Virus record (IMG/VR): IMGVR_UViG_3300021445_000001 | Span: 1 to 46,195 of that record | Source: a virus | Direction: 5' to 3' (one strand) | Length of the DNA: 46,195 nt | Shown here: positions 1,769 through 46,195 of the stretch, piece by piece | How positions within the stretch are numbered: the stretch's first letter is position 1 | Layout: each line of letters begins with the position of its first letter | Program-made: the position numbers and the translations under genes | The notes under the pieces: generated by a model | What the model saw: only the letters and a program-made list of their open reading frames with translations | Told to the model about the DNA's origin: nothing | Databases searched by the model: none

Positions 1769-2131
1769 TGGCTTCCTCTCTCCCTTTGACACACGCCATA
1801 GGGCGTGTGCTCTGAGCATGTGTGGTAGTGCCTAGCTGGTGTTGTCACAGCCACTCAGATTGAGCAGAACGGGCAAAGGTGCGACCCACCACACACACTC
1901 ACATTAGGAGAGTTGACAGGGGCTCTAGCCCCTGCTAGGAGAGATCATCCACTATTCAGTTCTCAACAGACCAGCGCCCTCGCCCAACAGTCCTTTCGAG
2001 TCTGCCGGACCGGCTTGCCTTGCAACACCAAAGCTAGACCTGCCGTGGAGTTCTGTCTATAGCCAATTTACTGCATGTTTACCGTCAACACGTTGAACAA
2101 TCGACGTGCCATCTCCCCTGAGCTCAATGTG

Positions 2132-2518
2132 GATCACCGTAGCCGGCTAATTGTTGGATAACGCGTCTAATAGCCGGCTGATCATGGCCCTGAGCTGGGC
2201 ATACATCATTCGATAACGGTGTTATGTTTCTGCAAACATGATCAAACAAGCCGCCGAGTGCCTTTAAGATCACGCAAACGTGATAAGATCGTTGATCTTT
2301 GTTTCAATATTATTGATCTTGATAGTCCGCATAATCTACATTATGCGGAGCCGGCCCCCAGGTCAGACGCAAGATCATTTGCCAAGGCGATGTGGATCAT
2401 GGTCGCTGCCCTTAATGATCATTAAGCCCTTGACATAGCCTCTGACCTGCGGTTTCTCACATTTTGGAAGATCAACTTCTCAGTATGTGGATGATCTTGC
2501 TCGGCCGGCTAAACGATC
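2132..2518. repeat. AT-rich cluster of 13 GATC sites (mostly AAGATCA / TGATCA); candidate pac site or replication origin
   Basis: GATC at 2132, 2180, 2240, 2268, 2287, 2294, 2315, 2373, 2395, 2417, 2470, 2493 and 2515. AAGATCA occurs 3 times on each strand and TGATCA 3 times. There is a 14-bp palindrome TTAATGATCATTAA at 2412-2425 and a hairpin CCGCATAAT-CTAC-ATTATGCGG at 2327-2348. Confidence 0.6.
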
Positions 2519-2608
2519 AACCGGCGGATGTTAAAGCGCAGCGGTGTGGTGTGGTGCTGCAACCCCAAAAAATTTTCCTAGGAAGATGCCAGCAACATGT
2601 CCGGGTTT

Positions 2609-2628
2609 GAACCCCCTTGTGGGGGTTC
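2609..2628 (+). terminator. Hairpin GAACCCCC-TTGT-GGGGGTTC followed by TATTAT (terminator-like)
   Basis: 8-bp GC stem with a tetraloop and a T-rich tail, located in the ORF-free region. Confidence 0.35.
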
Positions 2629-2717
2629 TATTATAACGATTTGGTAAAGGTTTTGAAACCATGCGTCCAGAGGTCGATTTTGGTCGCCCTATTAATATTG
2701 GGGGGTTTTAAAAGAGC

Positions 2718-2982
2718 GGACCGAGCGCAAGCGAGGGACGCGAGGGGGGCCGGTGCGCTCGGTCCTTCCGGTAAGGGCAGGGCATCAAGCCCTGCCCCCC
2801 ACTGATAGGCCGGCCCTTAAGGCCGGCCATATTCCAGGTTACGTAGAAGGGCGGGCCTCAAAGCCCGCCCATGAAAGCACCCCCGCGAGACGCGGGGGTC
2901 CCGGTCCGGTAGAGCAGCCGTCCCGGCTGCATCCCGCCCCCCGCTACCCTCGCGGGGGGCTCTGTGGCCCCCTCCGGGGGCC
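2718..2982. other. Array of eight consecutive GC-rich stem-loops directly upstream of the terminase gene
   Basis: Stems are 2718-2728/2755-2765 (11 bp), 2775-2783/2789-2797 (9), 2808-2815/2821-2828 (8), 2849-2856/2863-2870 (8), 2880-2887/2891-2898 (8), 2914-2920/2924-2930 (7), 2936-2944/2952-2960 (9) and 2966-2972/2976-2982 (7). The stem sequences all differ. Confidence 0.7.
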
Positions 2983-3026
2983 TTTGTGCTGCCCGAAAAT
3001 AATTCCGTAGAAATATCCCGTGGTTT

Positions 3027-4964
3027 ATGAAAACGCTCAGCCCGAAACCTTCCCGACCCGATGCCAAGAGAATTGTTCTGGAAAAGCTTCGTGAAGGTTG
3101 GTCGATTGAGCGTTCGTGTGAATATGTTGGCGTCACCGTCAAGGCGTATGAGTATTGGCTGTACCGGTCCAAGGACCCGAAGGAACGCCAATGGTTTGCC
3201 GACGAGGTTAGACGCATTCGAGCCAAGCAGGCTCAGGCCGGCCCGCCCGAAGTCCCTGACTTCGAAGAGTTCTCCAGTGTCTATCTCGGGAACCGTCTGT
3301 TCGACCATCATCTTCAGTGGCTGGATCTTCTGGAGGGCCGTGAGCCCCGATCCATTCACCCGGCGCAGACCTACATTCCGGGCCACCCGAACCTGCTTCT
3401 GATCAACACTCCCCCGCACCACGCAAAGTCTGAGCTGTTCTGCCAGAACTATGTAACGTGGCGGATCGTGCGCGATCCGAACATGCGGGTGCTGCTGGTG
3501 TCCGCCTCGGCGGACCGGGCGAAGAAAAACCTTGATGGCATCAAGAACCGTCTTGACAAAGACATCATGGTCTATCGGGATCTCAAGGACACGTTTGCTC
3601 CGGCTGAGGGTTACAACTCTAAGGATGCCAAATGGTCCGCGGACATGATCTTGGTGAATCCGGCCATTAGGCCGCGCAACACTTCCGGGCACCCCACGGT
3701 GCAGGCTCTCGGTATTCGCAAGAAGATTTACGGTGCCCGTGCTGACCTCATCATCCTTGACGACTGCTGCGACCTTGACAACGCTCACGAGTTTCAGAAG
3801 CAGATTGAGTGGATCCAGGCGATTATCAACTCCCGCCTTGAGCCGGGAACCGGCAAGCTGATCATCGTAGGGACTCGCCTGGCCGCTCAGGACTTGTATT
3901 CGGAGCTGCGCAAGCCGGAGTGGTATCTGTCTGGTGAGTCGCCGTGGACGTATCTGTCGCAGCCGGCTGTGTTGGAGTTCACCGATAACCCGGAGACCTG
4001 GAAGACCCTGTGGCCGAAGACGAATGTTCCCCCGGCTGGTTTGGATAGGGTCGAGCCTGACGCCAACGGTTTCTATCGCATGTGGGATGGGCCGGCGCTG
4101 GCTGAGAAGCGCAACAACATGTCGGCCGAGATGTGGTCTCGTGTGTACATGCAGGCGCAGATCTCCCAGTCCACCACGTTCACTCAGGCGGAGATTGATG
4201 GCTGCACTAATGGAAGTCGTCACCCCGGGGTCATCAATCCAGGTATGCCAGGAGTCCGTCCCGAGGGCATGGCAGGCCTATATGTCGTGGCTGGATTGGA
4301 TCCGGCTGCTACAAACTATACGGCCATGGTCGTGGTCGGGGCCGACCTGTCATCAGGTCGGCGATATCTGCTTGACGTGTGGAACCAGCACGGAGCCCTT
4401 CCCGCCCAAACATCCGCAGTGATGAAGGAGTGGACCAAGCGTTACGGCATCTCCGAATGGCGCATTGAGGTCAACGCCTTTCAGGCGTCTATCTTGCAGG
4501 ATGAGGATCTACGTTCATGGATGTCTTCACGCTCGGTGAGGATGAGCGCCCACACGACCGGCAAGAACAAGTGGGATTCGATGTGGGGCGTCGCGACGAT
4601 GTCCAACCTGTTCAAGGGCTGGGAGCAGGGATACAACGCGCTGGAGCTGCCGTCTCGAAAAGGCCACCCTGGCGTGCAAGCCCTTGTAGAGCAGTTGGTT
4701 GCCTGGTACCCCACGCCGAACATGAACCGGGCACCTGTCCAAGACTGCGTAATGGCGTTGTGGTTTGCGGAGATTCGCTGCCGTGAACTGCTGGACCAGC
4801 AGGACGGGTCGTCCCACTGGGATTCCGGGTGGCTGTCTCCGAGGGATCGTGAAGAGCAGGTCACCGTGAATATCGACTGGTATTCCATGTCTAATGGTCG
4901 TTTCGATGAACCCCCGGAGCCTGACGGCCCCGTGATACAGAACCCCGCGAGGTGGTGGGAATAA
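3027..4964 (+). CDS. terL: terminase large subunit with N-terminal HTH (small-subunit-like) extension, 645 aa
   Basis: The N-terminus RIVLEKLREGWSIERSCEYVGVTVKAYEYW looks like an HTH. ATPase motifs are NTPPHHAKSE, ADLIILDDCCD and IVGTRLAAQD. The C-terminal nuclease-like region starts at VVAGLDPAATNYTAMVVVG. Confidence 0.85.
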   Translation: MKTLSPKPSRPDAKRIVLEKLREGWSIERSCEYVGVTVKAYEYWLYRSKDPKERQWFADEVRRIRAKQAQAGPPEVPDFEEFSSVYLGNRLFDHHLQWLDLLEGREPRSIHPAQTYIPGHPNLLLINTPPHHAKSELFCQNYVTWRIVRDPNMRVLLVSASADRAKKNLDGIKNRLDKDIMVYRDLKDTFAPAEGYNSKDAKWSADMILVNPAIRPRNTSGHPTVQALGIRKKIYGARADLIILDDCCDLDNAHEFQKQIEWIQAIINSRLEPGTGKLIIVGTRLAAQDLYSELRKPEWYLSGESPWTYLSQPAVLEFTDNPETWKTLWPKTNVPPAGLDRVEPDANGFYRMWDGPALAEKRNNMSAEMWSRVYMQAQISQSTTFTQAEIDGCTNGSRHPGVINPGMPGVRPEGMAGLYVVAGLDPAATNYTAMVVVGADLSSGRRYLLDVWNQHGALPAQTSAVMKEWTKRYGISEWRIEVNAFQASILQDEDLRSWMSSRSVRMSAHTTGKNKWDSMWGVATMSNLFKGWEQGYNALELPSRKGHPGVQALVEQLVAWYPTPNMNRAPVQDCVMALWFAEIRCRELLDQQDGSSHWDSGWLSPRDREEQVTVNIDWYSMSNGRFDEPPEPDGPVIQNPARWWE

Positions 4965-6769
4965 TGGAAATTTCCGCTATCTCTCGCAAGGTCCAGGACA
5001 TGCGCATCCGTGCCTACCCTCGTGATTTGCGTATGGGTGAGGTTCGTGCTATCCGCGCCAACGAGCTTGACCGTGTGGCCCCTGGCCTGTTGGCCGATGA
5101 CTTCCCTAAGCCGATCGTCTCCAACATCATCAACGTGGCCGCGCAGTATTCGGCTGAGCAAATCGGCGTGATGCCCACGGTTTCGTGTACGGCCGGCGTC
5201 ATGGTCTCTGACCGCCAGAAGAAGTACGCCCAACGGCGTACTCTCATTGCCCACAACTATCTGGAGAACAGCCGGCTGAAAGTCTCGATGGTGGAGGCCT
5301 CCGACTGGCTCAACACCTATTCGTTTCTGCCGACGATTCTGGAACCCCACTTTGGTGACGCCTACTGCGAGCCCGGTCCGAGGCTGAGGTTTGAAAACCC
5401 ACTGGGCTGCTATTACGACCTTGACGTGTACGGCAGAACTCGCTGTTTCGTTAAAGTTTACGACTCCGACGTACAGGCTCTGGCTGCGAAGTTTCCTCAC
5501 GTGGCATCAGCGCTCTTGTCAGGCCTACGGGTGGAGTCTAACGCCAAAGTCGAGATGGTGTGCTATTACGATGACGACGAGATCGTTACATTTGTGCCGT
5601 CGCGTGACAACCTGGTCCTCAACCGCATAGCCAACAAGTTCGGCCGCTGCCCCGTCTACATTGCTGAGGCTCCCAAGTTCGATTCCGAGTCTCGTGGTGC
5701 CTACGACGATGTGGTGTGGATTCAGGTGGCCAGGGCGCTGTTCGCCCAGATGGGTATGGCTGCTGCTAAGAAGGCTGTGAACGCGCCCCTGGTGGTTCCG
5801 CCCGATGTGGTGAACATTCCCTTTGGTCGTGACCGTGTCATCCGCACCAACATGGGTGAGAAGATTCACTATGCCGCACAGGAGATGTCTCCGGCAGCCT
5901 GGCAGATCGGTGAGATTCTCAACCAAGATGTAACGGTGGGTGCTCGTTTCCCAGAGGGCGCTACCGGTAAGTCTCCCGGCTCGATCGTCACCGGCCGTGG
6001 TATGGAAGAGTTGATGGGCACCATCGACTCTAAGGTGAGAACCTACCAGCTTCTGATCGGCGATATGTTGCGGCGCGCCATCAGCGCGGCCTTTGAGATG
6101 GATGAGAAGTTCTGGCGTAACCGTCGGCGCTTCATCCGCATCATGGTGAACGGGCAACAGTATGAAGAGTCCTATGTCCCTTCCCGAGATATTGCCGGTG
6201 TCTATCAGGTTGATGTCACGTATGGCATGGCCGCAGGCATGGATCCCAACCGAGCCCTTGTGTTTCTCCTGCAAGCTCGCGGCGACAAGCTCATTTCGCG
6301 TGACTACGCTTTGCGACAGTTGCCTTTTGATCTCAACGTCGATCAGGTCATGGAACAAATCGATACCGAAGAGATGACCGACGCGCTCAAGCAGATGATT
6401 GCCCAAACTGCTATGGCGGTTCCTGCGCTTGCCGCACAGGGTCAGGATCCTTCGGACACGCTCACCAAGCTGGCCACGGTGCTGAAAAAACGCGAAGCCG
6501 GCATGCCGTTGCACGACGCTATTCTAGCGGCCTTTGTTCCGAAGCAGCCCCCAGCGCCACCACAGAGCCCCGATATGGCTTCTCAGATGGGTCCTGGCGG
6601 AATGGCACCCCCGGGCGGTCCTGGTGGCTTGCAGGGGCCTTCTGCCCCTATGTCTGGTCCTATGGCCGGCGGGCAACCTGACGTGATGAAACTTCTTGCG
6701 GGTCTGTCCGGCGGAGCCGGCACACCCAACCTTGGCGCGACTGTGAAGAGGCAAATCCCTAGTGGCTGA
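4964..6769 (+). CDS. portal protein (probable), 601 aa, with Gly/Pro/Met-rich C-terminal tail
   Basis: Sits immediately after the terminase with a TAATG overlap. ATG at 4964 has GAGGTGG upstream. Size and position are typical of a portal. Confidence 0.7.
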   Translation: MEISAISRKVQDMRIRAYPRDLRMGEVRAIRANELDRVAPGLLADDFPKPIVSNIINVAAQYSAEQIGVMPTVSCTAGVMVSDRQKKYAQRRTLIAHNYLENSRLKVSMVEASDWLNTYSFLPTILEPHFGDAYCEPGPRLRFENPLGCYYDLDVYGRTRCFVKVYDSDVQALAAKFPHVASALLSGLRVESNAKVEMVCYYDDDEIVTFVPSRDNLVLNRIANKFGRCPVYIAEAPKFDSESRGAYDDVVWIQVARALFAQMGMAAAKKAVNAPLVVPPDVVNIPFGRDRVIRTNMGEKIHYAAQEMSPAAWQIGEILNQDVTVGARFPEGATGKSPGSIVTGRGMEELMGTIDSKVRTYQLLIGDMLRRAISAAFEMDEKFWRNRRRFIRIMVNGQQYEESYVPSRDIAGVYQVDVTYGMAAGMDPNRALVFLLQARGDKLISRDYALRQLPFDLNVDQVMEQIDTEEMTDALKQMIAQTAMAVPALAAQGQDPSDTLTKLATVLKKREAGMPLHDAILAAFVPKQPPAPPQSPDMASQMGPGGMAPPGGPGGLQGPSAPMSGPMAGGQPDVMKLLAGLSGGAGTPNLGATVKRQIPSG

Positions 6770-17978: not shown

Positions 17979-18050
17979 TCGGGTGTGGGCCAATGGTCGG
18001 CCGCCTGCTTTGGGAGCAGGAATACGGGAGTTCGATTCTCTCCATCCGGA
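17979..18050 (+). tRNA. tRNA-Pro (anticodon TGG)
   Basis: Hand-folded cloverleaf: acceptor TCGGGTG/CATCCGG (two G.U pairs), D arm GGCC-AATGGTC-GGCC, anticodon arm CCTGC-TTTGGGA-GCAGG, T arm GGGAG-TTCGATT-CTCTC. Confidence 0.8.
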
Positions 18051-18152
18051 CTCTGCACCAGCTCTTTCAGCGCTGGCTGTATGTATCAAAGTCTGAAATC
18101 CACCAGGTATCCGTCAAGCTCCCCGGCTTGATGCGGCCTTTAACAGGGAGTT

Positions 18153-29063: not shown

Positions 29064-29121
29064 ATCGCCCCCAACGTTTGAGCCAGGCCAGGCGACCGGG
29101 GTGGATTTCCTGACCTGACAG

Positions 29122-29194
29122 TGGTCCCAGTAGGACTCGAACCTACGACAACCCCGGTTAAAAGCCGGGCGCTCTACCGCTGAGCTATGGGACC
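29122..29194 (-). tRNA. tRNA-Lys (anticodon TTT)
   Basis: GGTCCCATAGCTCAGCGGTAGAGCGCCCGGCTTTTAACCGGGGTTGTCGTAGGTTCGAGTCCTACTGGGACCA. All four arms pair. Confidence 0.85.
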
Positions 29195-29279
29195 AACCTA
29201 CTGGTTACAACCGGGGCCTCCACAGTGAGTCTCGCGAAGACAGCCGGCGCAATAACAAACACATTTCTTATCGGTCACG

Positions 29280-29354
29280 TGGCAGCCAAGGGATTTGAAC
29301 CGATGACCTCCGGCATATCAGGCCGGCGCTCTATCCAGACTGAGCTAGACTGCC
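29280..29354 (-). tRNA. tRNA-Ile (anticodon GAT), T stem with two mismatches
   Basis: GGCAGTC-TA-GCTC..GAGC-G-CCGGC-CTGATAT-GCCGG-AGGTC-ATCGG-TTCAAAT-CCCTT-GGCTGCC-A. The T stem ATCGG/CCCTT pairs at only 3 of 5 positions. Confidence 0.65.
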
Positions 29355-29469
29355 TCGCCCTGACAGCTCTTCGGGGGACCATCAGGGTTTATAGCTGTGA
29401 TCAGATCCGCGCATCCAGTCCGGGGCTGCCCCCTTTCTAAACTAGAAATGATCTGCAAGTTTTCTTGCG

Positions 29470-29542
29470 CTGCCGACCCTGGATTCGAACCAGGAACACA
29501 CGGATTAACAATCCGCTACTCTGCCACTTGAGTTAGCCAGCA
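29470..29542 (-). tRNA. tRNA-Asn (anticodon GTT)
   Basis: TGCTGGC-TA-ACTC-AAGTGGCA-GAGT-A-GCGGA-TTGTTAA-TCCGT-GTGTT-CCTGG-TTCGAAT-CCAGG-GTCGGCA-G. Confidence 0.8.
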
Positions 29543-29550
29543 AAACTTAG

Positions 29551-29624
29551 ACCCTACGCCTGTTCAATCGGGCTCGGCATACGGTAGCCGTCCGGAGTTC
29601 TCCTCCGGCTCTATTGGCGTAGGG
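29551..29624 (-). ncRNA. 74-nt stem-loop domain closed by a 9-bp helix (CCCTACGCC/GGCGTAGGG)
   Basis: Perfect 9-bp long-range complement enclosing the nested hairpin CCGGAG-TTCTC-CTCCGG. No ORF. Confidence 0.35.
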
Positions 29625-29630
29625 GTTAGC

Positions 29631-29755
29631 ACACCTGAGATCAAGGTGACCACGGAGATTGTTGATACCGTCACAACGTCGACCCTTGCGGGCCTCTCGG
29701 ATTTGAACCGAATTTCATTAGCAGTGAAGTATCCGTAGTCTATCGCACCAGGTGT
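29631..29755 (-). ncRNA. Structured-RNA module A (unknown family)
   Basis: Minus-strand read: CACCUG-GUGCGAUA-GACUACGGA-UACUUCA...UCCGUGGUC-ACCUUGAUCU-CAGGUG. The insert contains a T-arm-like hairpin UUCGG-UUCAAAU-CCGAG. Confidence 0.5.
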
Positions 29756-29892
29756 TGGACACTACGTGTGGCAGTTGCCACCCCAGCAATGGTTGCCAGA
29801 CGAGCAACCCTCACAACTACACGTACACTTGCACGGATCGGACAGCCATACCCACAACTTTCGCATGCTGGCTCCCGTAGAGTTCAAGGTGA

Positions 29893-29977
29893 TAGCAGAG
29901 ATCAAATCGAGTCGGCTTCTCGGTCTGATGATTAGTCAGAGTGTCGTAAGAAGTATGCCGCCTCTGCGCACCTGCTA
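29893..29977 (-). ncRNA. Structured-RNA module D (same family as A and B)
   Basis: UAGCAG-GUGCGCA-GAGGCGGC-AUACUUC...GCCGACUC-GAUUUGAUCU-CUGCUA. Confidence 0.45.
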
Positions 29978-29988
29978 CCGTACTTTGC

Positions 29989-30062
29989 GTGTCTGAGATC
30001 AAAGGGACGACAGGGTGTGATCATCCAAATATGAAGTACCTGTCATCTATCGCACCAGACAC
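29989..30062 (-). ncRNA. Structured-RNA module B (same family, minimal 74-nt version)
   Basis: GUGUCUG-GUGCGAUA-GAUGACAGG-UACUUCAUAUUUGGAUGAUCACAC-CCUGUCGUC-CCUUUGAUCU-CAGACAC. Confidence 0.5.
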
Positions 30063-30128
30063 TGAATCTGGATGGTCCCGCCCCTCAGCCGGCACATCCT
30101 ATTGAATGAAACTGAGGGGCAGAACCCG

Positions 30129-30210
30129 CTTCCGGGGCAGGCCACGCGCCTGCCATCTTTGTGGAATGTCATGGAGACCACAACGCTCTACTCTTGAGCT
30201 ACCGGAAACC
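30129..30210 (-). ncRNA. Aberrant tRNA-like element (canonical acceptor and D arm, 13-nt anticodon-position loop, no T loop)
   Basis: UUUCCGG-UA-GCUC-AAGAGUA-GAGC-G-UUGUGG-UCUCCAUGACAUU-CCACAA-AGAU-GGCAGGC-GCGUG-GCCUGCC-CCGGAAG. Confidence 0.4.
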
Positions 30211-30391
30211 AGGTAGACGCTTGTGCGGAGAGCCTACCTTGGGTGTTCACTTGTAAAGCAGCGCATGACTCACAGTGTGTCCGAATCACCCTAACCATGG
30301 ATGAGTGGTATACGTGAGCGCCGAGGTATACCGGCCCGGCTGAACGAGGAAACCAAACCGCCCGCATCAGACAGCCAGGATTCTTTGCCCG

Positions 30392-30468
30392 TAGCGGTAG
30401 GTGGGATTTGAACCCACGATCTCCGGCTTATGAGGCCGGCGGGGACAGCCGAGCTCCCCTACTCCGCT
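30392..30468 (-). tRNA. tRNA-Met-like (anticodon CAT) with irregular acceptor stem
   Basis: Anticodon arm CCGGC-CTCATAA-GCCGG, T arm GTGGG-TTCAAAT-CCCAC and D stem GGGG/CCCC are good. The acceptor strands GCGGAGT / CTACCGC pair only partly, or need one extra nucleotide. Confidence 0.55.
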
Positions 30469-31032: not shown

Positions 31033-32829
31033 TTACTGCTCCTTTTCGTAGAGTGATCCCCAAGATCGCCCACCGATCTTGGCTGTTGCCGGCATGTCCA
31101 CCGGCCCGATTTTGGTGCTCATGATTTGCTCGATCTCCGCCACCATGTCCAGGCTGTCCTCGGGCACTGAGAAAATGATCTCGTCGTGGACGGCCAACCT
31201 CATGTAGGGCAGAAACCCCGCGTCATACAGCCTCACCATGCCCTGCGCTGTGACGTCCCGGCACCCTGACTGCACGTAGTAGTTGAGCGCCGCGTACAGG
31301 CGGTTCTGATCGACGGGCAGTTGCCTGCCCGTCCACGTGGTGATGTAGCCGTTTTGACTCGCCTCGTACATGAGTGCCCTGGCCTTGCCAGCGATCCCCG
31401 GGTAGGCCTTCTTGATGGCTTCTCGCACCGTCTGGGCCTGTTCCAGGGTCATCCCGAACTGATCCATGAGCGCCTGGTTGCCGCCACCGTAGAGGGTCGC
31501 GAAGTTTCCCCCCTTGCCATACTTGCGCATGGCTTCACCCTGACCGGGCCACGCAGTCTCCGCCGTGATGGTGTGCAGATCTTCGTTGTTGCGAAACGCT
31601 CGGATCATCCGAGCGTCAGGGGCCATGGCCGCGATGAACCGCAACTCCTGATTGGAGTAGTCACACGCAACGATTCGATGCCCGATGTCTGCCACAAAGG
31701 AAGATCTCACCGTGGAATCCCCAGACGGCAGGGTCTGTGCCGGAATCCCAGTGATAGAGAACCTGGCAGTCCTTGCACGCAAGGTAGACGTCGATGGGTG
31801 TACACGTCCCGTACTGTCCTGTTGTGTCAGGAACTTCTCTATCCACGTCGTTCGCCACTTTCGAGCCTTCTTTCCCTCCACGATGGCTTGCACCAAGTCG
31901 TCTCCAAGATGCGCCTTCAAGAGGGTTTTGTCTACAGCCGGCTTGCCTGTGGGTGTGGTGCGGTCTGGCTTGATGCCCCGAGGCTCTAGAGCCTCGGCGA
32001 CCTGGACCGGGGAGTTGATGTTGTCGCAGCCAAGCTCCCTTGCCAATGCCTTACAGCGAACCTCCGTGGCTATGAGTGTCTGTTTCAGATTCTCGGTGTA
32101 CTCGACGTCGAGGAGAAAGCCCCTGGCGTCCATCTGTGACACGAGTTTGGCGAGTTTGTGTTCGAACACCACCAGGTGGCCGAATCTTCGCATGAAAGCA
32201 TCAGTAAGTAGATGTGCTCCAAGCTGTGCTGTCACGATCGTGTCAGTGCCCGAATACAGCAGATACACCAAGTTGTCGATCGGCATCACTTCGAACATGC
32301 GTGCTAACGGAGTGTTTTTAGGAATCTCTCCGGAAGCCTTGAGCCTGGCGAACTCCTCACGTAGAGTGGTTCCCAACTTGCGGGACTTCGGAAGGTAGCG
32401 CTCGGCGAGATCTTCAAGACTGTGACCTACACCACCTTCTTCACGGCCACGGGGATCTGCCAGATGTGATATGATTTTGGTGCACCTGGTGGCGGGCCAG
32501 AGAGCTTCAGGATCGAAACCGTAGTGCCGGCACAACACCTGAATATCGTAGCTGGCGAAATGCATAACAATTCGGATACGATTGGCTAACAGCTTGCCTA
32601 TCACTTCGAGGGCCACGGAGTGCATGTGTGGTTTCTCGACCTGAATAACCCACGCTTCACGTGGGTTGCCGAGCTGAAGCAGACGTATTCGGTGGTTTGG
32701 GGAATAGATGTCGAGACCGGTGGTCTCGGTATCCAGCGCAACGGTAGACTGGTGGTTGAGCCAGCCCAATAGGGCTGGCAGATCTTCGGGAGTCTCCACA
32801 ACGCGGATGTTTGAACTGATCGTCCGCAT
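31033..32829 (-). CDS. polA: DNA polymerase I (family A) with 3'-5' exonuclease domain, 598 aa
   Basis: Exo motif VALDTETTGLD. Pol motifs DYSNQELRFIAA, RKYGKGGNFATLYGGG, YVQSGCRDV and AVHDEIIF. Confidence 0.9.
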   Translation of the reverse strand: MRTISSNIRVVETPEDLPALLGWLNHQSTVALDTETTGLDIYSPNHRIRLLQLGNPREAWVIQVEKPHMHSVALEVIGKLLANRIRIVMHFASYDIQVLCRHYGFDPEALWPATRCTKIISHLADPRGREEGGVGHSLEDLAERYLPKSRKLGTTLREEFARLKASGEIPKNTPLARMFEVMPIDNLVYLLYSGTDTIVTAQLGAHLLTDAFMRRFGHLVVFEHKLAKLVSQMDARGFLLDVEYTENLKQTLIATEVRCKALARELGCDNINSPVQVAEALEPRGIKPDRTTPTGKPAVDKTLLKAHLGDDLVQAIVEGKKARKWRTTWIEKFLTQQDSTGRVHPSTSTLRARTARFSITGIPAQTLPSGDSTVRSSFVADIGHRIVACDYSNQELRFIAAMAPDARMIRAFRNNEDLHTITAETAWPGQGEAMRKYGKGGNFATLYGGGNQALMDQFGMTLEQAQTVREAIKKAYPGIAGKARALMYEASQNGYITTWTGRQLPVDQNRLYAALNYYVQSGCRDVTAQGMVRLYDAGFLPYMRLAVHDEIIFSVPEDSLDMVAEIEQIMSTKIGPVDMPATAKIGGRSWGSLYEKEQ

Positions 32830-35949: not shown

Positions 35950-36293
35950 TGAGTGACCGGATATGTCCTGAGCCACCCAACGAAGAGCGCGTGTTTCTGA
36001 ATCCTTTTGACGTCACCACCTACGACAGTGTGGCCGGCCCGCGATACCAGGTTCGTGAGAAGTCTATGGACGGCGCAAAGAACACGTTCAACGCTTCCGA
36101 ATGGGATGTTACGGTTACCTTCACCCCTAAGCGACCTGTCATTAAGGTCGGGGATATAGTCAAACACATTGACTACGGTTTTGCTTGGCGTGTTCTTTAT
36201 ATTCACGACGTGTGGGCTTGGGTAGTGCCTCTGACCACCGGCACACTTACGCCAAATACACGGCTGCTCCGTGACCTCCGACCGGCGGATTGA
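35949..36293 (+). CDS. hypothetical protein, 114 aa
   Basis: GTG overlapping the previous stop (TAGTG). Confidence 0.55.
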   Translation: MSDRICPEPPNEERVFLNPFDVTTYDSVAGPRYQVREKSMDGAKNTFNASEWDVTVTFTPKRPVIKVGDIVKHIDYGFAWRVLYIHDVWAWVVPLTTGTLTPNTRLLRDLRPAD

Positions 36294-36633
36294 GATTCCC
36301 ATCGGCCCAACGCTTGAGGCGTTGGGCTTGGACACCAGCGCTGGGGTTGGGCGCAAGCTGATCTGTATTTTTCACAACGAGTCCAACCCTTCCGCTGTCT
36401 TCTACGAGACTTATTTCAAATGCTTCGCCTGTGGTGTTCAGGGTGACGCTCCCCGTTTGCTCCACGACTTTGAAGGACTCGATTGGAAGGATGCTTACCA
36501 AAGAGCAAAGGACCTCGCTGGAATCGAAGACAGCCCGTTACCACCGCAACATCAGCCAGGCAAGCGAGTATTTGACGGAACGAGGAATTTCGGCGGACAG
36601 CGCCGTTTCGGCCAGACTAGGGGTAGTCGATGA
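36271..36633 (+). CDS. DNA primase, CHC2 zinc-finger part (frame 1); the 3' ~100 nt is probably not native
   Basis: CIFHNESNPSAVFYETYFKCFACGVQGDAPRLL. Confidence 0.6.
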   Translation: MTSDRRIEIPIGPTLEALGLDTSAGVGRKLICIFHNESNPSAVFYETYFKCFACGVQGDAPRLLHDFEGLDWKDAYQRAKDLAGIEDSPLPPQHQPGKRVFDGTRNFGGQRRFGQTRGSR

Positions 36634-37120
36634 ATCCATTCCGGGTGATCCCAACGCAGCAGGTGAGCGTCTCAGCATACCCTACCTCACAAAATCCGGG
36701 GTTGTCGATATTCGTTACCGCTGCATCCGGGGCCACGATTGCGGAGAGATATCCTGTCCCAAGTACCTTGGAGGGGTTGGCGTCACTCCTCGGATTTACG
36801 GTGCTGGATTCCTTGTCTCAGCAGGTTCCCGGATCTGCATTGCTGAAGGAGAATTGGACTCTCTCATTCTCACTCAACTTGGCTATTCGGCGGTCGGAGT
36901 CCCCGGAGCAAACACCTGGAAACGACACTGGCGACGACTGTTCGAAGACTTCACCCGAGTCTACATTTTCTGTGACGGCGACGACGCCGGCCACGGATTC
37001 CGGACACACCTCATGGCTGAAATCCCTACGGCAGAGGCTGTCATGATGCCGCCCAAGCAAGATGTTAACTCCATGTTCCTGAAGGAGGGACGCGATTATT
37101 TTGACAGGATTCTCCGATAA
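36431..37120 (+). CDS. DNA primase, linker plus TOPRIM part (frame 2, +1 relative to the zinc-finger ORF)
   Basis: ARYHRNISQASEYLTERGIS...ICIAEGELDSLILTQLGYSAVGVPGA...IFCDGDDAGHGF. No convincing RBS for the in-frame starts at 36431 or 36491. Confidence 0.6.
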   Translation: MVFRVTLPVCSTTLKDSIGRMLTKEQRTSLESKTARYHRNISQASEYLTERGISADSAVSARLGVVDESIPGDPNAAGERLSIPYLTKSGVVDIRYRCIRGHDCGEISCPKYLGGVGVTPRIYGAGFLVSAGSRICIAEGELDSLILTQLGYSAVGVPGANTWKRHWRRLFEDFTRVYIFCDGDDAGHGFRTHLMAEIPTAEAVMMPPKQDVNSMFLKEGRDYFDRILR

Positions 37121-40108: not shown

Positions 40109-41623
40109 TTATCCCTTCATGCTTTCTAGAAACTCTTCCAGGGTCAGCCTAGACTTACCGGGCCAGTAGGCCACCGAATCACCACCAGGCAGCAGACACA
40201 CCCTAAAGCCTGCCGACAGCAGCAGATCTCGGCGAGCATCGACGTCAGACTCTTCCCACCACTGACCCCACGTCTTGCCCGAAGGCCTCTCCTCCCACCG
40301 GTCTGGTTCTGCGGGCAACGCGGCGAGGTTTTTCTGTTTCGTGGTCAACGCGGTCAAGCGGTTGATGTATTCCTGCTGATCCAAGACTAGGCCCGCGTCA
40401 GATTCGGCGCGCAGATTCTTCAGAGCCTGCTCAATACCCTCAAGCTCTGCCATGTGGTCGCTGCCAGGAACAAACTGCCTCTCCGGGCGGTCCAGCGGTC
40501 CTATGTTTTCCAAGAATGCTTGGTTAACCCGCTGCATCAGGTCTTCCTCGAAGATGCGAACACCCTTGCAGGAGGTAGTGCCTTGCTGCCACTTGCCGTA
40601 GCAGAGATAGAAACCCCTCCGCTTGCGACCGGTCTTTTTGTTCACATATTCAGGCTGTCGGTAGGCCGGCCCACCACACATGCCACAGAATGCGATCCCC
40701 ATAAGGGGCGCTGTATTGCGCGTGTGGCTCCCGTAATTGCTGCGTTCCTTCAGAACGTGCTGAAGCCGGCGGAAGGTTGTTTCATCAAAGACAGGGTCTG
40801 CCATGATTACGGGCTCTCCGTCTGCGGTGCGAACCGCCTGACCCTTGGATACCTTGTATCCAAGCAGCTTTTCCGATCGGAGCATCTCCCCAAGGGTTGC
40901 GGGGTGCCACTCAGGTGTGCGGTCTACGTACGCCGATCCTGCTTTCGGTGCAGGCACTCCAGCTTGGTTGAGAAGGCGCGCGACAGACCACAAGGATTCG
41001 CCACCAAACAGGTAGTCCGCGATTTCCTGAAGAATTCTGGCCTCTTCCGGCACGAGCTCCAGCGTTTTCCCGCGAGCAACGCCATCCACCATGCGGTCAA
41101 TGATGCGGTAGCCGTAAGGCGGAGCCCCGGAAGCCCATCGCGGTTGTGTGGCCAAGTAGTCGTGGGAGGACTGGACCCGCTCTTTGATCGCCTGTGCTTC
41201 CATCTCAGCGGCAAAGGCAAGAACCGTCATAATGAGGGCGGATAGCGGTGTGGACATGTCGAATTCGAGAGCCCCACCCCCAGGACCCTCAGTGAACATC
41301 AGCTTTTTGTTGTGGTCCTTGGCGAAGCCGGCCAGTGCGTGAAGATCCCGCATACTTCTGACCGCACGGTCCAGACGCCACCACACGATCACGTCATATT
41401 TGTTGATCAGCACAGGGTCCGTGAGCCACGGACCCAACTTCGGCCGGTCGAATGGGCTCACCTTGGAGGCGCTCACACCATCGTCTACAGCCCTGCCAAT
41501 GACCTCCCACCCACGGCTATCGGTAAGGCGGTCACAGGCGTTGTCCTGGCGTGTCAGAGAGGTACTGTCGTCCTTGCGCTGAGAAATACGGGTCGCCGTG
41601 AGTGCGCGAGTCATGCTGGTCAC
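40109..41623 (-). CDS. int: large serine recombinase (integrase), about 504 aa
   Basis: N-terminal resolvase-type catalytic region (TRISQRKDDSTSLTRQ...VIVWWRLDRAVRS), recombinase domain, zinc ribbon (CGMCGGP...C) and a coiled-coil-like C-terminus. GTG at 41623 with GGAGG 7 nt upstream; the longest ORF reaches 41695. Confidence 0.85.
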   Translation of the reverse strand: MTSMTRALTATRISQRKDDSTSLTRQDNACDRLTDSRGWEVIGRAVDDGVSASKVSPFDRPKLGPWLTDPVLINKYDVIVWWRLDRAVRSMRDLHALAGFAKDHNKKLMFTEGPGGGALEFDMSTPLSALIMTVLAFAAEMEAQAIKERVQSSHDYLATQPRWASGAPPYGYRIIDRMVDGVARGKTLELVPEEARILQEIADYLFGGESLWSVARLLNQAGVPAPKAGSAYVDRTPEWHPATLGEMLRSEKLLGYKVSKGQAVRTADGEPVIMADPVFDETTFRRLQHVLKERSNYGSHTRNTAPLMGIAFCGMCGGPAYRQPEYVNKKTGRKRRGFYLCYGKWQQGTTSCKGVRIFEEDLMQRVNQAFLENIGPLDRPERQFVPGSDHMAELEGIEQALKNLRAESDAGLVLDQQEYINRLTALTTKQKNLAALPAEPDRWEERPSGKTWGQWWEESDVDARRDLLLSAGFRVCLLPGGDSVAYWPGKSRLTLEEFLESMKG

Positions 41624-41700
41624 AGTAGCACCTCCGGAGTAAATGTTCATGGTGTTGCCAGGAACAACCGTAACAGTTACTACCGACTGGGTCAAGCAAA

Positions 41701-44444: not shown

Positions 44445-44474
44445 AAAACCGGCCAAGCCCTAGGGCTTGGCCGG
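44445..44474 (-). terminator. Intrinsic terminator (minus strand)
   Basis: CCGGCCAAGCCC-TA-GGGCTTGGCCGG followed on the minus strand by TTTT. Confidence 0.6.
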
Positions 44475-44483
44475 CAATGGACC

Positions 44484-44912
44484 TCACAGATTCAGCAACG
44501 CTTTTACACGGTCCAACTGCTCTTCCAGAACCCGCACCCTGGCTTCCGCAGTCTCCGCGCGTTCGCGCAGAGCCGCCATATCTGTCCCGTACTCCAGAAG
44601 CTCACCCACGGTCATCTCCATGACCGCTTTCCCGGCAAGATTCGCGGGGGTTGGTGCCGAAGATTCCGAAACAGCAGGCTCCGGTACTGCTTCCCCCTGC
44701 ATTTCTGCCTGATGGTTGCGCTTGGCATGGATGGTCGCGTTACCGCTCACGGATGACACGTAGTCGCACACCTTGCAGTGGTAAAACTTCCGCCCATCTT
44801 CCAGTATCAGCCTGTTAACCAGCGGATGTGTAGTGCCGGCCTGCGGACCACTGTGCCGGGTGAAAGGCTCCACTGACGCAACCTTGACACCGTCCACAAT
44901 CTCTACAGCCAT
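44484..44912 (-). CDS. protein with a single C2H2-pattern zinc finger and C-terminal coiled coil, 142 aa
   Basis: YHCKVCDYVSSVSGNATIHAKRNH fits C-x2-C-x12-H-x4-H. C-terminus RERAETAEARVRVLEEQLDRVKALL. ATG with GGAAGGGAA upstream. Confidence 0.55.
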   Translation of the reverse strand: MAVEIVDGVKVASVEPFTRHSGPQAGTTHPLVNRLILEDGRKFYHCKVCDYVSSVSGNATIHAKRNHQAEMQGEAVPEPAVSESSAPTPANLAGKAVMEMTVGELLEYGTDMAALRERAETAEARVRVLEEQLDRVKALLNL

Positions 44913-44986
44913 TGTTGTTCCCTTCCGCCTGCCTCCATGACAGACACCAAACCGTGCGCGCCGAAGCGCGCACAGCAAGGAATCTT

Positions 44987-45260: not shown

Positions 45261-45548
45261 TCAGCGCTGGCAGTCGTTCTCGCATGCGTAAATCGTGTAG
45301 ATGAGCGTTTCCAGCATTACGCTGTCAATGTCACCTTCCACCTGTCGGAGCTCCGAGACAGCCACACACAGATTGCAGCAGTCTTCGATGCCATCCATCA
45401 GGTTCTCGTCACACGCACATTCTTCTTCCGACTCAGCCTGCCCGATCAGAAAATCGGAAGCCTCGCCCATGGTCTCGAAGATGCGGAACGGCGTCTCCGG
45501 TGCGGTTTCCGGAAAGTGCCAACCCGCGTGGAAGTGCCGAGTGCTCAT
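45261..45548 (-). CDS. hypothetical acidic Cys-rich protein, 95 aa
   Basis: ORF track; RBS GAGAGGAGAGAAAG upstream. Confidence 0.6.
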   Translation of the reverse strand: MSTRHFHAGWHFPETAPETPFRIFETMGEASDFLIGQAESEEECACDENLMDGIEDCCNLCVAVSELRQVEGDIDSVMLETLIYTIYACENDCQR

Positions 45549-45894: not shown

Positions 45895-46105
45895 TGGAAC
45901 CCACCTTGATGCACGTCTTGCAGGTGATCTCCACGTCAGAGTTCATGTTGTGGCGGACACCACGAGCCTTTCGGCCACACAGCGTGAAGTTCTCTCGGAT
46001 GTAGGACCAGTTCCCATCGGATGTGGCGTGAATGACGCCGTTGAGCCCGTCCGACAGCATTGCCCCAAACCGCGCTTTCACTGTATCTCTCCACTTCTGA
46101 ATCAC
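45887..46105 (-). CDS. hypothetical protein, 72 aa (CxxC at C-terminus); start lies inside the terminal overlap
   Basis: ORF track. The start at 46105 corresponds to position 37 of the circle. Confidence 0.55.
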   Translation of the reverse strand: MIQKWRDTVKARFGAMLSDGLNGVIHATSDGNWSYIRENFTLCGRKARGVRHNMNSDVEITCKTCIKVGSND

Positions 46106-46195
46106 TTTGCACTGAGTGATCCTGGCGGTGCCGGGGTTAGAACCCCGGCACCACTAGCTACCTTCAGTACTTGCATGGGTTTTCGATGATCTGAT
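46069..46195. repeat. Terminal overlap copy 2 (identical to 1-127)
   Basis: Read directly from the sequence. Confidence 0.9.

Follow-up and report, generated by a model that had tools for sequence, protein, structure and literature searches.

The question raised by this locus is why thirteen GATC tetranucleotides are packed into 387 bp of AT-rich, non-coding DNA upstream of a phage large terminase gene. The window, i.e. the whole stretch of DNA analysed here, is a viral genome of 46,195 bp (IMG/VR record IMGVR_UViG_3300021445_000001). The original prediction likened the cluster to the pac site of phage P1, in which adenine methylation of clustered GATC hexamers controls cleavage, and also considered methylation- or iteron-controlled origins. 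Our analysis favours, with a probability of about one half, a lineage-specific array of protein-recognition words, located in the predicted direct terminal repeat (DTR) of a Beephvirinae-like actinobacterial podovirus, the likeliest reader being the putative helix-turn-helix (HTH) of the large terminase (TerL). The array would probably be a signal for packaging and would not indicate methylation control. The novelty lies in the word of this predicted terminal-repeat array, which has come to contain GATC in an uncultured sister group of the Beephvirinae.

Genome Organization and Affiliation

The first and last 127 bp of the window are exactly identical (1-127 = 46069-46195), a k-mer overlap that is the signature of a circular assembly. 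Because of this overlap, the unique genome measures 46,068 bp and contains 264 GATC; two sites (50 and 120) are double-counted in raw totals. Such an assembly is compatible with a collapsed DTR, and equally with a circularly permuted genome. Two other public assemblies, which both read straight through the array region, match it with 100% identity. The array belongs to a 1.2-kb non-coding interval (1820-3026), bordered on one side by leftward small genes, whose products have no family match, and on the other by the rightward terminase gene.

Besides TerL, the open reading frames (ORFs) encode a capsid protein, NlpC/P60, SLT, and GH25 lysins, a family-A DNA polymerase, a split primase, a DnaB-like helicase, a RecB-type nuclease, a WhiB-like protein, a sigma-like protein, and a serine integrase (40109-41695, minus strand) with Resolvase, Recombinase, and Zn-ribbon domains. 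A probable portal, to which Pfam assigns no family, is called by its position, which matches that of the annotated portal of phage Immanuel3. The primase is encoded on the plus strand by 36271-36633 (CHC2 zinc-finger) and 36431-37120 (Toprim), which overlap by ~200 nt; Immanuel3 is likewise annotated with two overlapping "DNA primase" CDS. Five tRNA genes are present. The tRNA-Pro gene (17979-18051, plus strand) follows the SLT and hypothetical genes, at the position of the first gene of Immanuel3’s 22-tRNA array, while those for Lys, Ile, Asn, and Met are found on the minus strand (29121-30468). A 26-bp perfect palindrome, CCGGCCAAGCCCTAGGGCTTGGCCGG, lies at 44449-44474 in the leftward early-gene block.

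Over 95% of its length, TerL shares 44-46% of its residues with the TerL of Beephvirinae podoviruses (matches in 29 Streptomyces phage records), and the gene order is that of Immanuel3. Judged by these similarities, the window is an actinophage genome syntenic with the Streptomyces podoviruses of the Beephvirinae, and its host, by gene content, is an actinobacterium. A TerL-based prophage search of 185,579 species genomes returned no relative, and a sensitive blastn search of 1800-3100 against 50,697 phage records returned no match.

The GATC Cluster

A recount returns the thirteen GATC first reported for 2132-2518, at positions 2132, 2180, 2240, 2268, 2287, 2294, 2315, 2373, 2395, 2417, 2470, 2493, and 2515. 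Local composition predicts 1.5 sites and the genome-wide density (5.5 per kb) predicts 2.2, close to the one or two estimated originally. This is the densest GATC cluster of the genome, the runner-up holding 8 sites per 387 bp. The genome-wide enrichment check that had been proposed, now run, finds at least 13 sites in a 387-bp span in 0.08% of random placements (scan-statistic P ~8e-4). Over the entire genome, the tetranucleotide is neutral, with 264 copies observed and 268 expected under a Markov model.

The composition of the sites is also as first described. Twelve of the thirteen read GATCA on one strand or the other, the exception being 2287. AAGATCA occurs three times on each strand, TGATCA three times, GGATCA twice, and CGATCA once. 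Six of the eleven genome copies of AAGATCA fall within 2132-2518, a 54-fold enrichment. The palindrome TTAATGATCATTAA is found at 2412-2425 as announced and extends to 2411-2426. Of the recurring motif GCCGGCTA, the copies at 2142 and 2504 are exact, whereas the third proposed copy, at 2173, reads GCCGGCTG. The region is the AT-richest of the genome at a 400-bp scale (GC 0.48), as had been claimed, but not at 200 bp, where DNA around 37741 is slightly lower (0.415 vs 0.43).

The sites are separated by only two classes of spacing, 7 bp and ~17-26 bp, and helical phasing was not detected, with no periodicity at 6-14 bp (R ≤0.22). A partial repeat is observed 21 bp apart within the array (2285-2299 vs 2306-2320, 80% identical), of which the second copy adds a GATC site missing from the other three members of the lineage described below. 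The single-strand fold of 2053-2583 has a z-score of -4.6, because of the local palindromes, and an Rfam scan of 1800-3050 yielded no RNA family reaching threshold. The possibility of a hidden ORF was considered and rejected. Translated matches span all frames of both strands and switch frame, and the array region is therefore non-coding; consistent with the original view that it holds no credible ORF, no frame is conserved throughout the four lineage members. The features of the locus are collected in Table 1.

Table 1. Positions in the window of the array, its flanking elements, and the terminase gene.
Feature	Positions	Strand or orientation	Remarks
Left block CTGTCTATAGCCAATTT...TCAACACGTTGAACAA	2053-2100	+	Conserved in four lineage members
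Predicted DTR, single collapsed copy	~2063-2559		Placed by boundary homology; ends approximate, the left one less certain
Array of 13 GATC words, consensus (A/T)(A/G)GATCA(A/T)	2132-2518	Mixed	One inverted pair and one 16-bp palindrome (2411-2426)
Inverted pair AAGATC-GTT-GATCTT	2285-2299		Two GATC 7 bp apart; in 4/4 members of the GATC lineage
Perfect hairpin/palindrome TCCGCATAAT-N4-ATTATGCGGA	2326-2349		Inside the array; nearly invariant in four lineage members
Family-wide element CAACCGGCGGATGTTAAAGCGCAGCGGTGTGGTGTGGTGCTGCAACCCCAAAAAATTTTCCTAGGA	2518-2583	+	Right DTR end inside the Beephvirinae homologue corresponds to ~2559/2560
Eight GC-rich perfect hairpins, stems of 7-12 bp	2718-2982 (265 bp)	+	Between the predicted repeat and TerL
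Large terminase (TerL), 645 aa	3027-4964	+	Residues 10-46 (3054-3164): predicted three-helix HTH-like unit, followed by long helices

Conservation of the Array and Replacement of Its Word

Twenty-eight IMG/VR contigs encode a TerL at 76-87% identity. The two closest relatives (L001 and L002) harbor 10 and 16 GATC, respectively, in the homologous block, located ~600-1,000 bp before TerL. A metagenome scan yielded one new member of this lineage (L057), with 11 GATC in the homologous block, and one spurious locus (L055). The homologous blocks of the four lineage members share 59-69% DNA identity. The inverted pair AAGATCGTTGATCTT and the sites at 2395, 2470, 2493, and 2515 are held in place across the lineage, and the remaining sites have been turned over between its members. 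At this level of divergence, the coexistence of kept and replaced sites suggests that selection acts on the number of sites, as it does in binding-site arrays.

The word itself differs between lineages. To the left of the conserved TGTTAA element (see below), the window lineage uses (A/T)RGATCA(A/T). Several relatives with a TerL of 76-81% identity display instead 5-9 TGTCA/TGACA words, often (A/T)TGTCAAC, partly at conserved offsets and mostly within ~230 bp of the element. In Immanuel3, seven same-strand TGTC(C/A/G) words, ~10 bp apart, occupy positions 166-232 of the DTR, in which ATGTCC is 17-fold enriched. The last site preceding the element is positionally homologous throughout, being CGATCAACCGG in the window, TGTCAACCCC or TGACAACCGG in the relatives, and TGTCGACCCG in Immanuel3. 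Since TGTCAAC or TGTCC takes its place in the sister lineages, GATC would be the core of the recognised word and not an independent signal. The neutral genome-wide frequency of GATC is in line with this role. None of the 50 ORFs scanned contains a methyltransferase Pfam domain, in agreement with the original statement that no such gene is visible. One relative of 76% identity (L027) combines both words at 5337-5597 of its locus coordinates, with TGTCA/TGACA words distal and three GATC words adjoining the element; this mixed array possibly represents an intermediate stage of the word switch.

The Predicted Terminal Repeat

GenBank records of cultured Beephvirinae contain exact DTRs, of 275 bp in Immanuel3, 276 bp in Manuel, 253 bp in FlowerPower, and 264 bp in WRightOn. 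These repeats start with GTCCC(A/C)T and end with ...GTTGTTAA(A/C)...GGAGTG, at 370-403 bp before TerL. The bases that follow the right end are AGTCCCC...AAA..TCCA, so that the boundary reads GGAGTG^AGTCCCC (the caret marks the repeat end).

A related element is found in the window, 467 bp before TerL when measured from ~2559. It is invariant in 15/15 uncultured relatives with enough flanking sequence, in which it lies 393-624 bp before TerL, and its TGTTAA core is invariant across 19 aligned sequences. Its layout in the uncultured relatives and the window is CAACCnnnnn(A/T)TGTTAAA, followed by a G/T-rich run and by CAACC..AAA..TTTT.C. A profile of the Beephvirinae boundary finds its best match in the window at 2520-2573 (nhmmer, E 0.82). 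Conversely, the only good matches of a profile of the uncultured relatives in Immanuel3 are 233-257 and 46052-46076 (E 0.037), which are the right ends of both DTR copies. These best matches are reciprocal and, within a genome of 46 kb, both fall inside the syntenic 100 bp, with modest E-values. The homology of the right boundary thus has modest sequence support (E 0.04-0.8) and rests largely on synteny. Elsewhere in the genome, ACTGTGACCTACACCAC at 32413-32435, inside the polymerase gene, matches the post-DTR sequence of FlowerPower and Immanuel3 (nhmmer E 1.4), probably by chance.

On the left side, the conserved block resembles G(G/T)GTAGCAAC...CAAACACTTGACAAC, found ~230 bp left of the element in other relatives, as well as GATGTACA^GTCCC at the left DTR end of the Beephvirinae. 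The Beephvirinae boundary reads ..GTACA^GTCCCATCTCCC, the relatives have G(G/T)GTAGCAAC in common, and the window carries TATAGCCAAT at 2058-2067 and GTGCCATCTCCCC at 2107, a short similarity given without statistics. This short and weak resemblance, suggestive only, would place the repeat start at ~2063. The predicted repeat would then measure ~500 bp, twice the length of those of the relatives, and would hold the whole GATC cluster. The contig ends of the relatives were considered as a proxy for physical genome ends and rejected: they fall 46 to 1,813 bp upstream of TerL, off the predicted boundaries.

Other features of the interval are shared with relatives. A conserved non-coding word, CACT(A/G)TT(C/G)AGTTCTCAA, is located between the last leftward early gene and the repeat in the window (1946-1966), in L001 (~4790-4812), and in all four Beephvirinae checked, with one to two copies each; in Immanuel3 (L037), they lie at ~44910-44931 and ~45313-45334. 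Downstream of the predicted repeat, the run of GC-rich hairpins looks to be the densest in the genome’s hairpin listing, several of its loops reading (C)TCAA(G/A), and similar CTCAAG-loop hairpins occupy the same interval of Immanuel3 (276-678). Compared with Rfam, the 2718-2982 hairpins gave weak, sub-threshold sRNA matches only. Two facing promoter-like sites, TTGAAC-16-TATTAT at 2607-2634 (plus strand) and TTCAAA-16-TATAAT at 2657-2630 (minus strand), overlap a hairpin at 2609-2628; the first, together with the TATAACGATTTGGTAAAG that follows it, is kept in L002.

The Terminase as Candidate Reader

TerL possesses an extra N-terminal region of ~100 residues. No gene exists between the array and TerL, and hence no separate small terminase is encoded there; none was recognised. 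Matches of the TerL N-terminus to HTH families are all below cut-off, with a PHROG transposase-type HTH at E 6e-4 and the Pfam families HTH_23 and Sigma70_r4_2 at E ~0.02. Neither Pfam nor PHROGs assigned TerL to a PacA/PacB-type family. A single-sequence AlphaFold model predicts helices at residues 10-22, 27-34, and 38-46, then long helices, with a pLDDT of 74-83 over residues 11-60. Compared with the PDB using Foldseek, the modelled domain has no significant match. Against viral models, its best matches are mostly small terminase subunits and phBC6A51-type homeodomains (E 0.05-0.6). A sequence search of the PDB with the same domain returned nanobody matches only, which are spurious. The model thus weakly suggests that the TerL N-terminus is a small-terminase-like HTH domain.

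This domain diverges faster than the TerL core. Between word lineages, its identity is 45-53%, compared with 81-83% for the rest of the protein, and within a lineage 64-75%, compared with 89-90%. Relative to the core, the domain diverges to the same degree within word lineages as between them, so that its co-variation with the word does not discriminate and neither supports nor refutes co-evolution. With the HTH evidence weak and the divergence non-discriminating, the terminase is a candidate reader. The original idea of a recognition-site array read by the terminase’s own HTH fits the evidence for the array, which sits where the Beephvirinae have a DTR with analogous word arrays, and less so for the HTH, whose support is weak.

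Packaging could then proceed as follows. The replicating genome would form concatemers, at whose junctions the array would be coated by a phage DNA-binding protein, most likely the terminase, by way of a small-terminase-like HTH fused to the N-terminus of TerL. Once bound, this protein would position the nuclease for cuts at the repeat boundaries (~2063 and ~2559/2560), and the DNA entering each virion would thereby comprise one genome and an additional copy of the repeat. Methylation would play no part in this scheme. Among the elements of the original prediction, the packaging site is the best supported, through a terminal repeat of the T7/Beephvirinae type and not a P1-type pac.

Alternative Explanations

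The array might instead be a replication origin, its words being iterons or weak DnaA-type boxes that recruit a duplex-opening initiator beside the AT-richest DNA, possibly with a packaging role as well. We consider this unlikely. T7 has secondary origins near its genome ends, which keeps such an origin under consideration, and the lowest GC at the 400-bp scale and the repeated words in both orientations would suit one. The region contains three 9-mers that differ from a DnaA box by one mismatch (TGATCCACA twice and TCATCCACA once), compared with 0.27 expected, and the Immanuel3 DTR carries ATGTCCACA and TTGTCCACC. However, the other 15 relatives have 0-1 such 9-mers each, which are thus not a family feature, and what is conserved in the Beephvirinae word is ATGTCC instead of the CACA half of a DnaA box. 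Moreover, the array has no initiator gene next to it, primase, helicase, and polymerase being encoded ~28-34 kb away, and the GC-skew profile has no clear switch specific to the array. The 9-mers of the window are on the minus strand (2128-2136, 2391-2399, and 2486-2494), belong to a direct-repeat family ATGTGGAT, and represent 3 of the 23 one-mismatch DnaA-box matches of the genome. Origins of the oriC or P1 oriR type resemble the locus in their GATC density, low GC, and few DnaA-box-like 9-mers, but the window differs from them in that its DnaA-box array is not conserved across relatives and has no initiator gene beside it.

Just as unlikely is an operator array, through which a phage transcription regulator would control the leftward early genes (from 1819) and the rightward terminase and structural genes. 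Its location between divergent genes in a 1.2-kb intergenic region, the presence of inverted pairs and palindromes of the kind that dimeric regulators typically use, the WhiB-like and sigma-like proteins encoded by the phage, and the promoter-like site at 2607-2634 are all in keeping with such a role. The words are not promoters, however: a search of 2132-2518 found no promoter-like site, and a sigma-70 promoter array was rejected since a -10 hexamer follows, at 16-18 nt, only 1 of 75 TTGACA-like words of the relatives. They have no adjacent regulator gene, and no other intergenic region of the genome reuses them. The homologous arrays of cultured relatives belong to phages reported as virulent and are contained in the DTR, at the physical ends of these genomes.

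The P1-like reading supposes that the terminase binds and cuts only when the clustered GATC are methylated or hemimethylated, followed by headful packaging. P1 pac comprises seven TGATCA/G hexamers within 161 bp, cleaved in a Dam-dependent manner (PMC10028697). In both systems, GATC hexamers are clustered at a comparable density, some of them exactly TGATCA (three of thirteen here), and in P1 they are the recognition words of the terminase (PMC10028697); a circular assembly would also suit a permuted genome. The differences are nevertheless numerous. P1 pac has four plus three hexamers flanking one cut site, where the window has 13 sites over 387 bp, and the P1 hexamers are inside pacA, while this array is outside any coding gene. 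P1 pac requires Dam, IHF, and HU to initiate headful packaging, whereas no methylase was found in the window phage, in which GATC occurs at its neutral frequency. The homologous arrays of sister lineages are devoid of GATC (TGTCAAC, TGTCC), and the genomes of the relatives end in exact short DTRs in place of headful ends. The host, by gene content, is actinobacterial. To our knowledge, Dam/SeqA-type control is not typical of actinobacteria, and we know of no SeqA-type sequestration in them. The P1 analogy of the original prediction is disfavoured on these grounds, a control of this kind being very unlikely. A related scenario is very unlikely too: the fused-HTH terminase, lacking a separate small subunit, would read in the terminal repeat a word re-tuned between close lineages (TGTCC, then TGTCAAC, then GATCA), and packaging or end processing in the GATC lineage would have become sensitive to host adenine methylation, making it an actinophage counterpart of P1 pac control, of independent origin.

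Lastly, a by-product of chance or composition in AT-richer non-coding DNA, in which several AT-rich tetramers are locally enriched too, has virtually no likelihood: the conservation of the array excludes it, the same excess being found in three further diverged genomes, besides the scan statistic in the window genome and the 54-fold enrichment of the extended 7-mer.

Significance and Comparison with Known Systems

Were the packaging-signal reading true, it would provide a concrete packaging signal for a widespread soil actinophage group, known chiefly through metagenomes, and the genome ends of uncultured members would become predictable from sequence alone. The three words would form a natural series for the co-evolution of a terminase DNA-recognition domain and its sites. 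As a caution, a GATC cluster need not signal Dam control.

Among known systems, the T7-type concatemer junction offers a general parallel. T7, whose short exact terminal repeat is processed by its terminase, encodes gp18 as a separate small terminase, as well as an RNA polymerase of its own. The likeness lies in a podovirus with a short DTR (here in the relatives), short-repeat arrays in or beside the terminal repeat, and a packaging signal at the genome end, near non-coding regulatory DNA. Unlike T7, the window phage has a TerL carrying a putative DNA-binding domain and encodes a sigma-like factor. Its terminase is the first gene after the repeat, whereas that of T7 is near the right end, and there is no sequence similarity to the T7 ends.

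The Beephvirinae DTRs are the closest match. They share with the window the gene order, the long non-coding interval between the last leftward early gene and TerL, a TGTTAA... element ~400-470 bp before TerL with an array of short words directly to its left, and GC-rich hairpins between this element and TerL. The word is RGATCAW in the window and ATGTCC in the Beephvirinae, and the array extends over ~390 bp in mixed orientation, in contrast to the seven same-strand copies ~10 bp apart of Immanuel3. The predicted repeat of ~500 bp compares with 253-276 bp. Furthermore, the window phage encodes a serine integrase, whereas the Beephvirinae member Abafar has been reported as virulent (PMC11536984).
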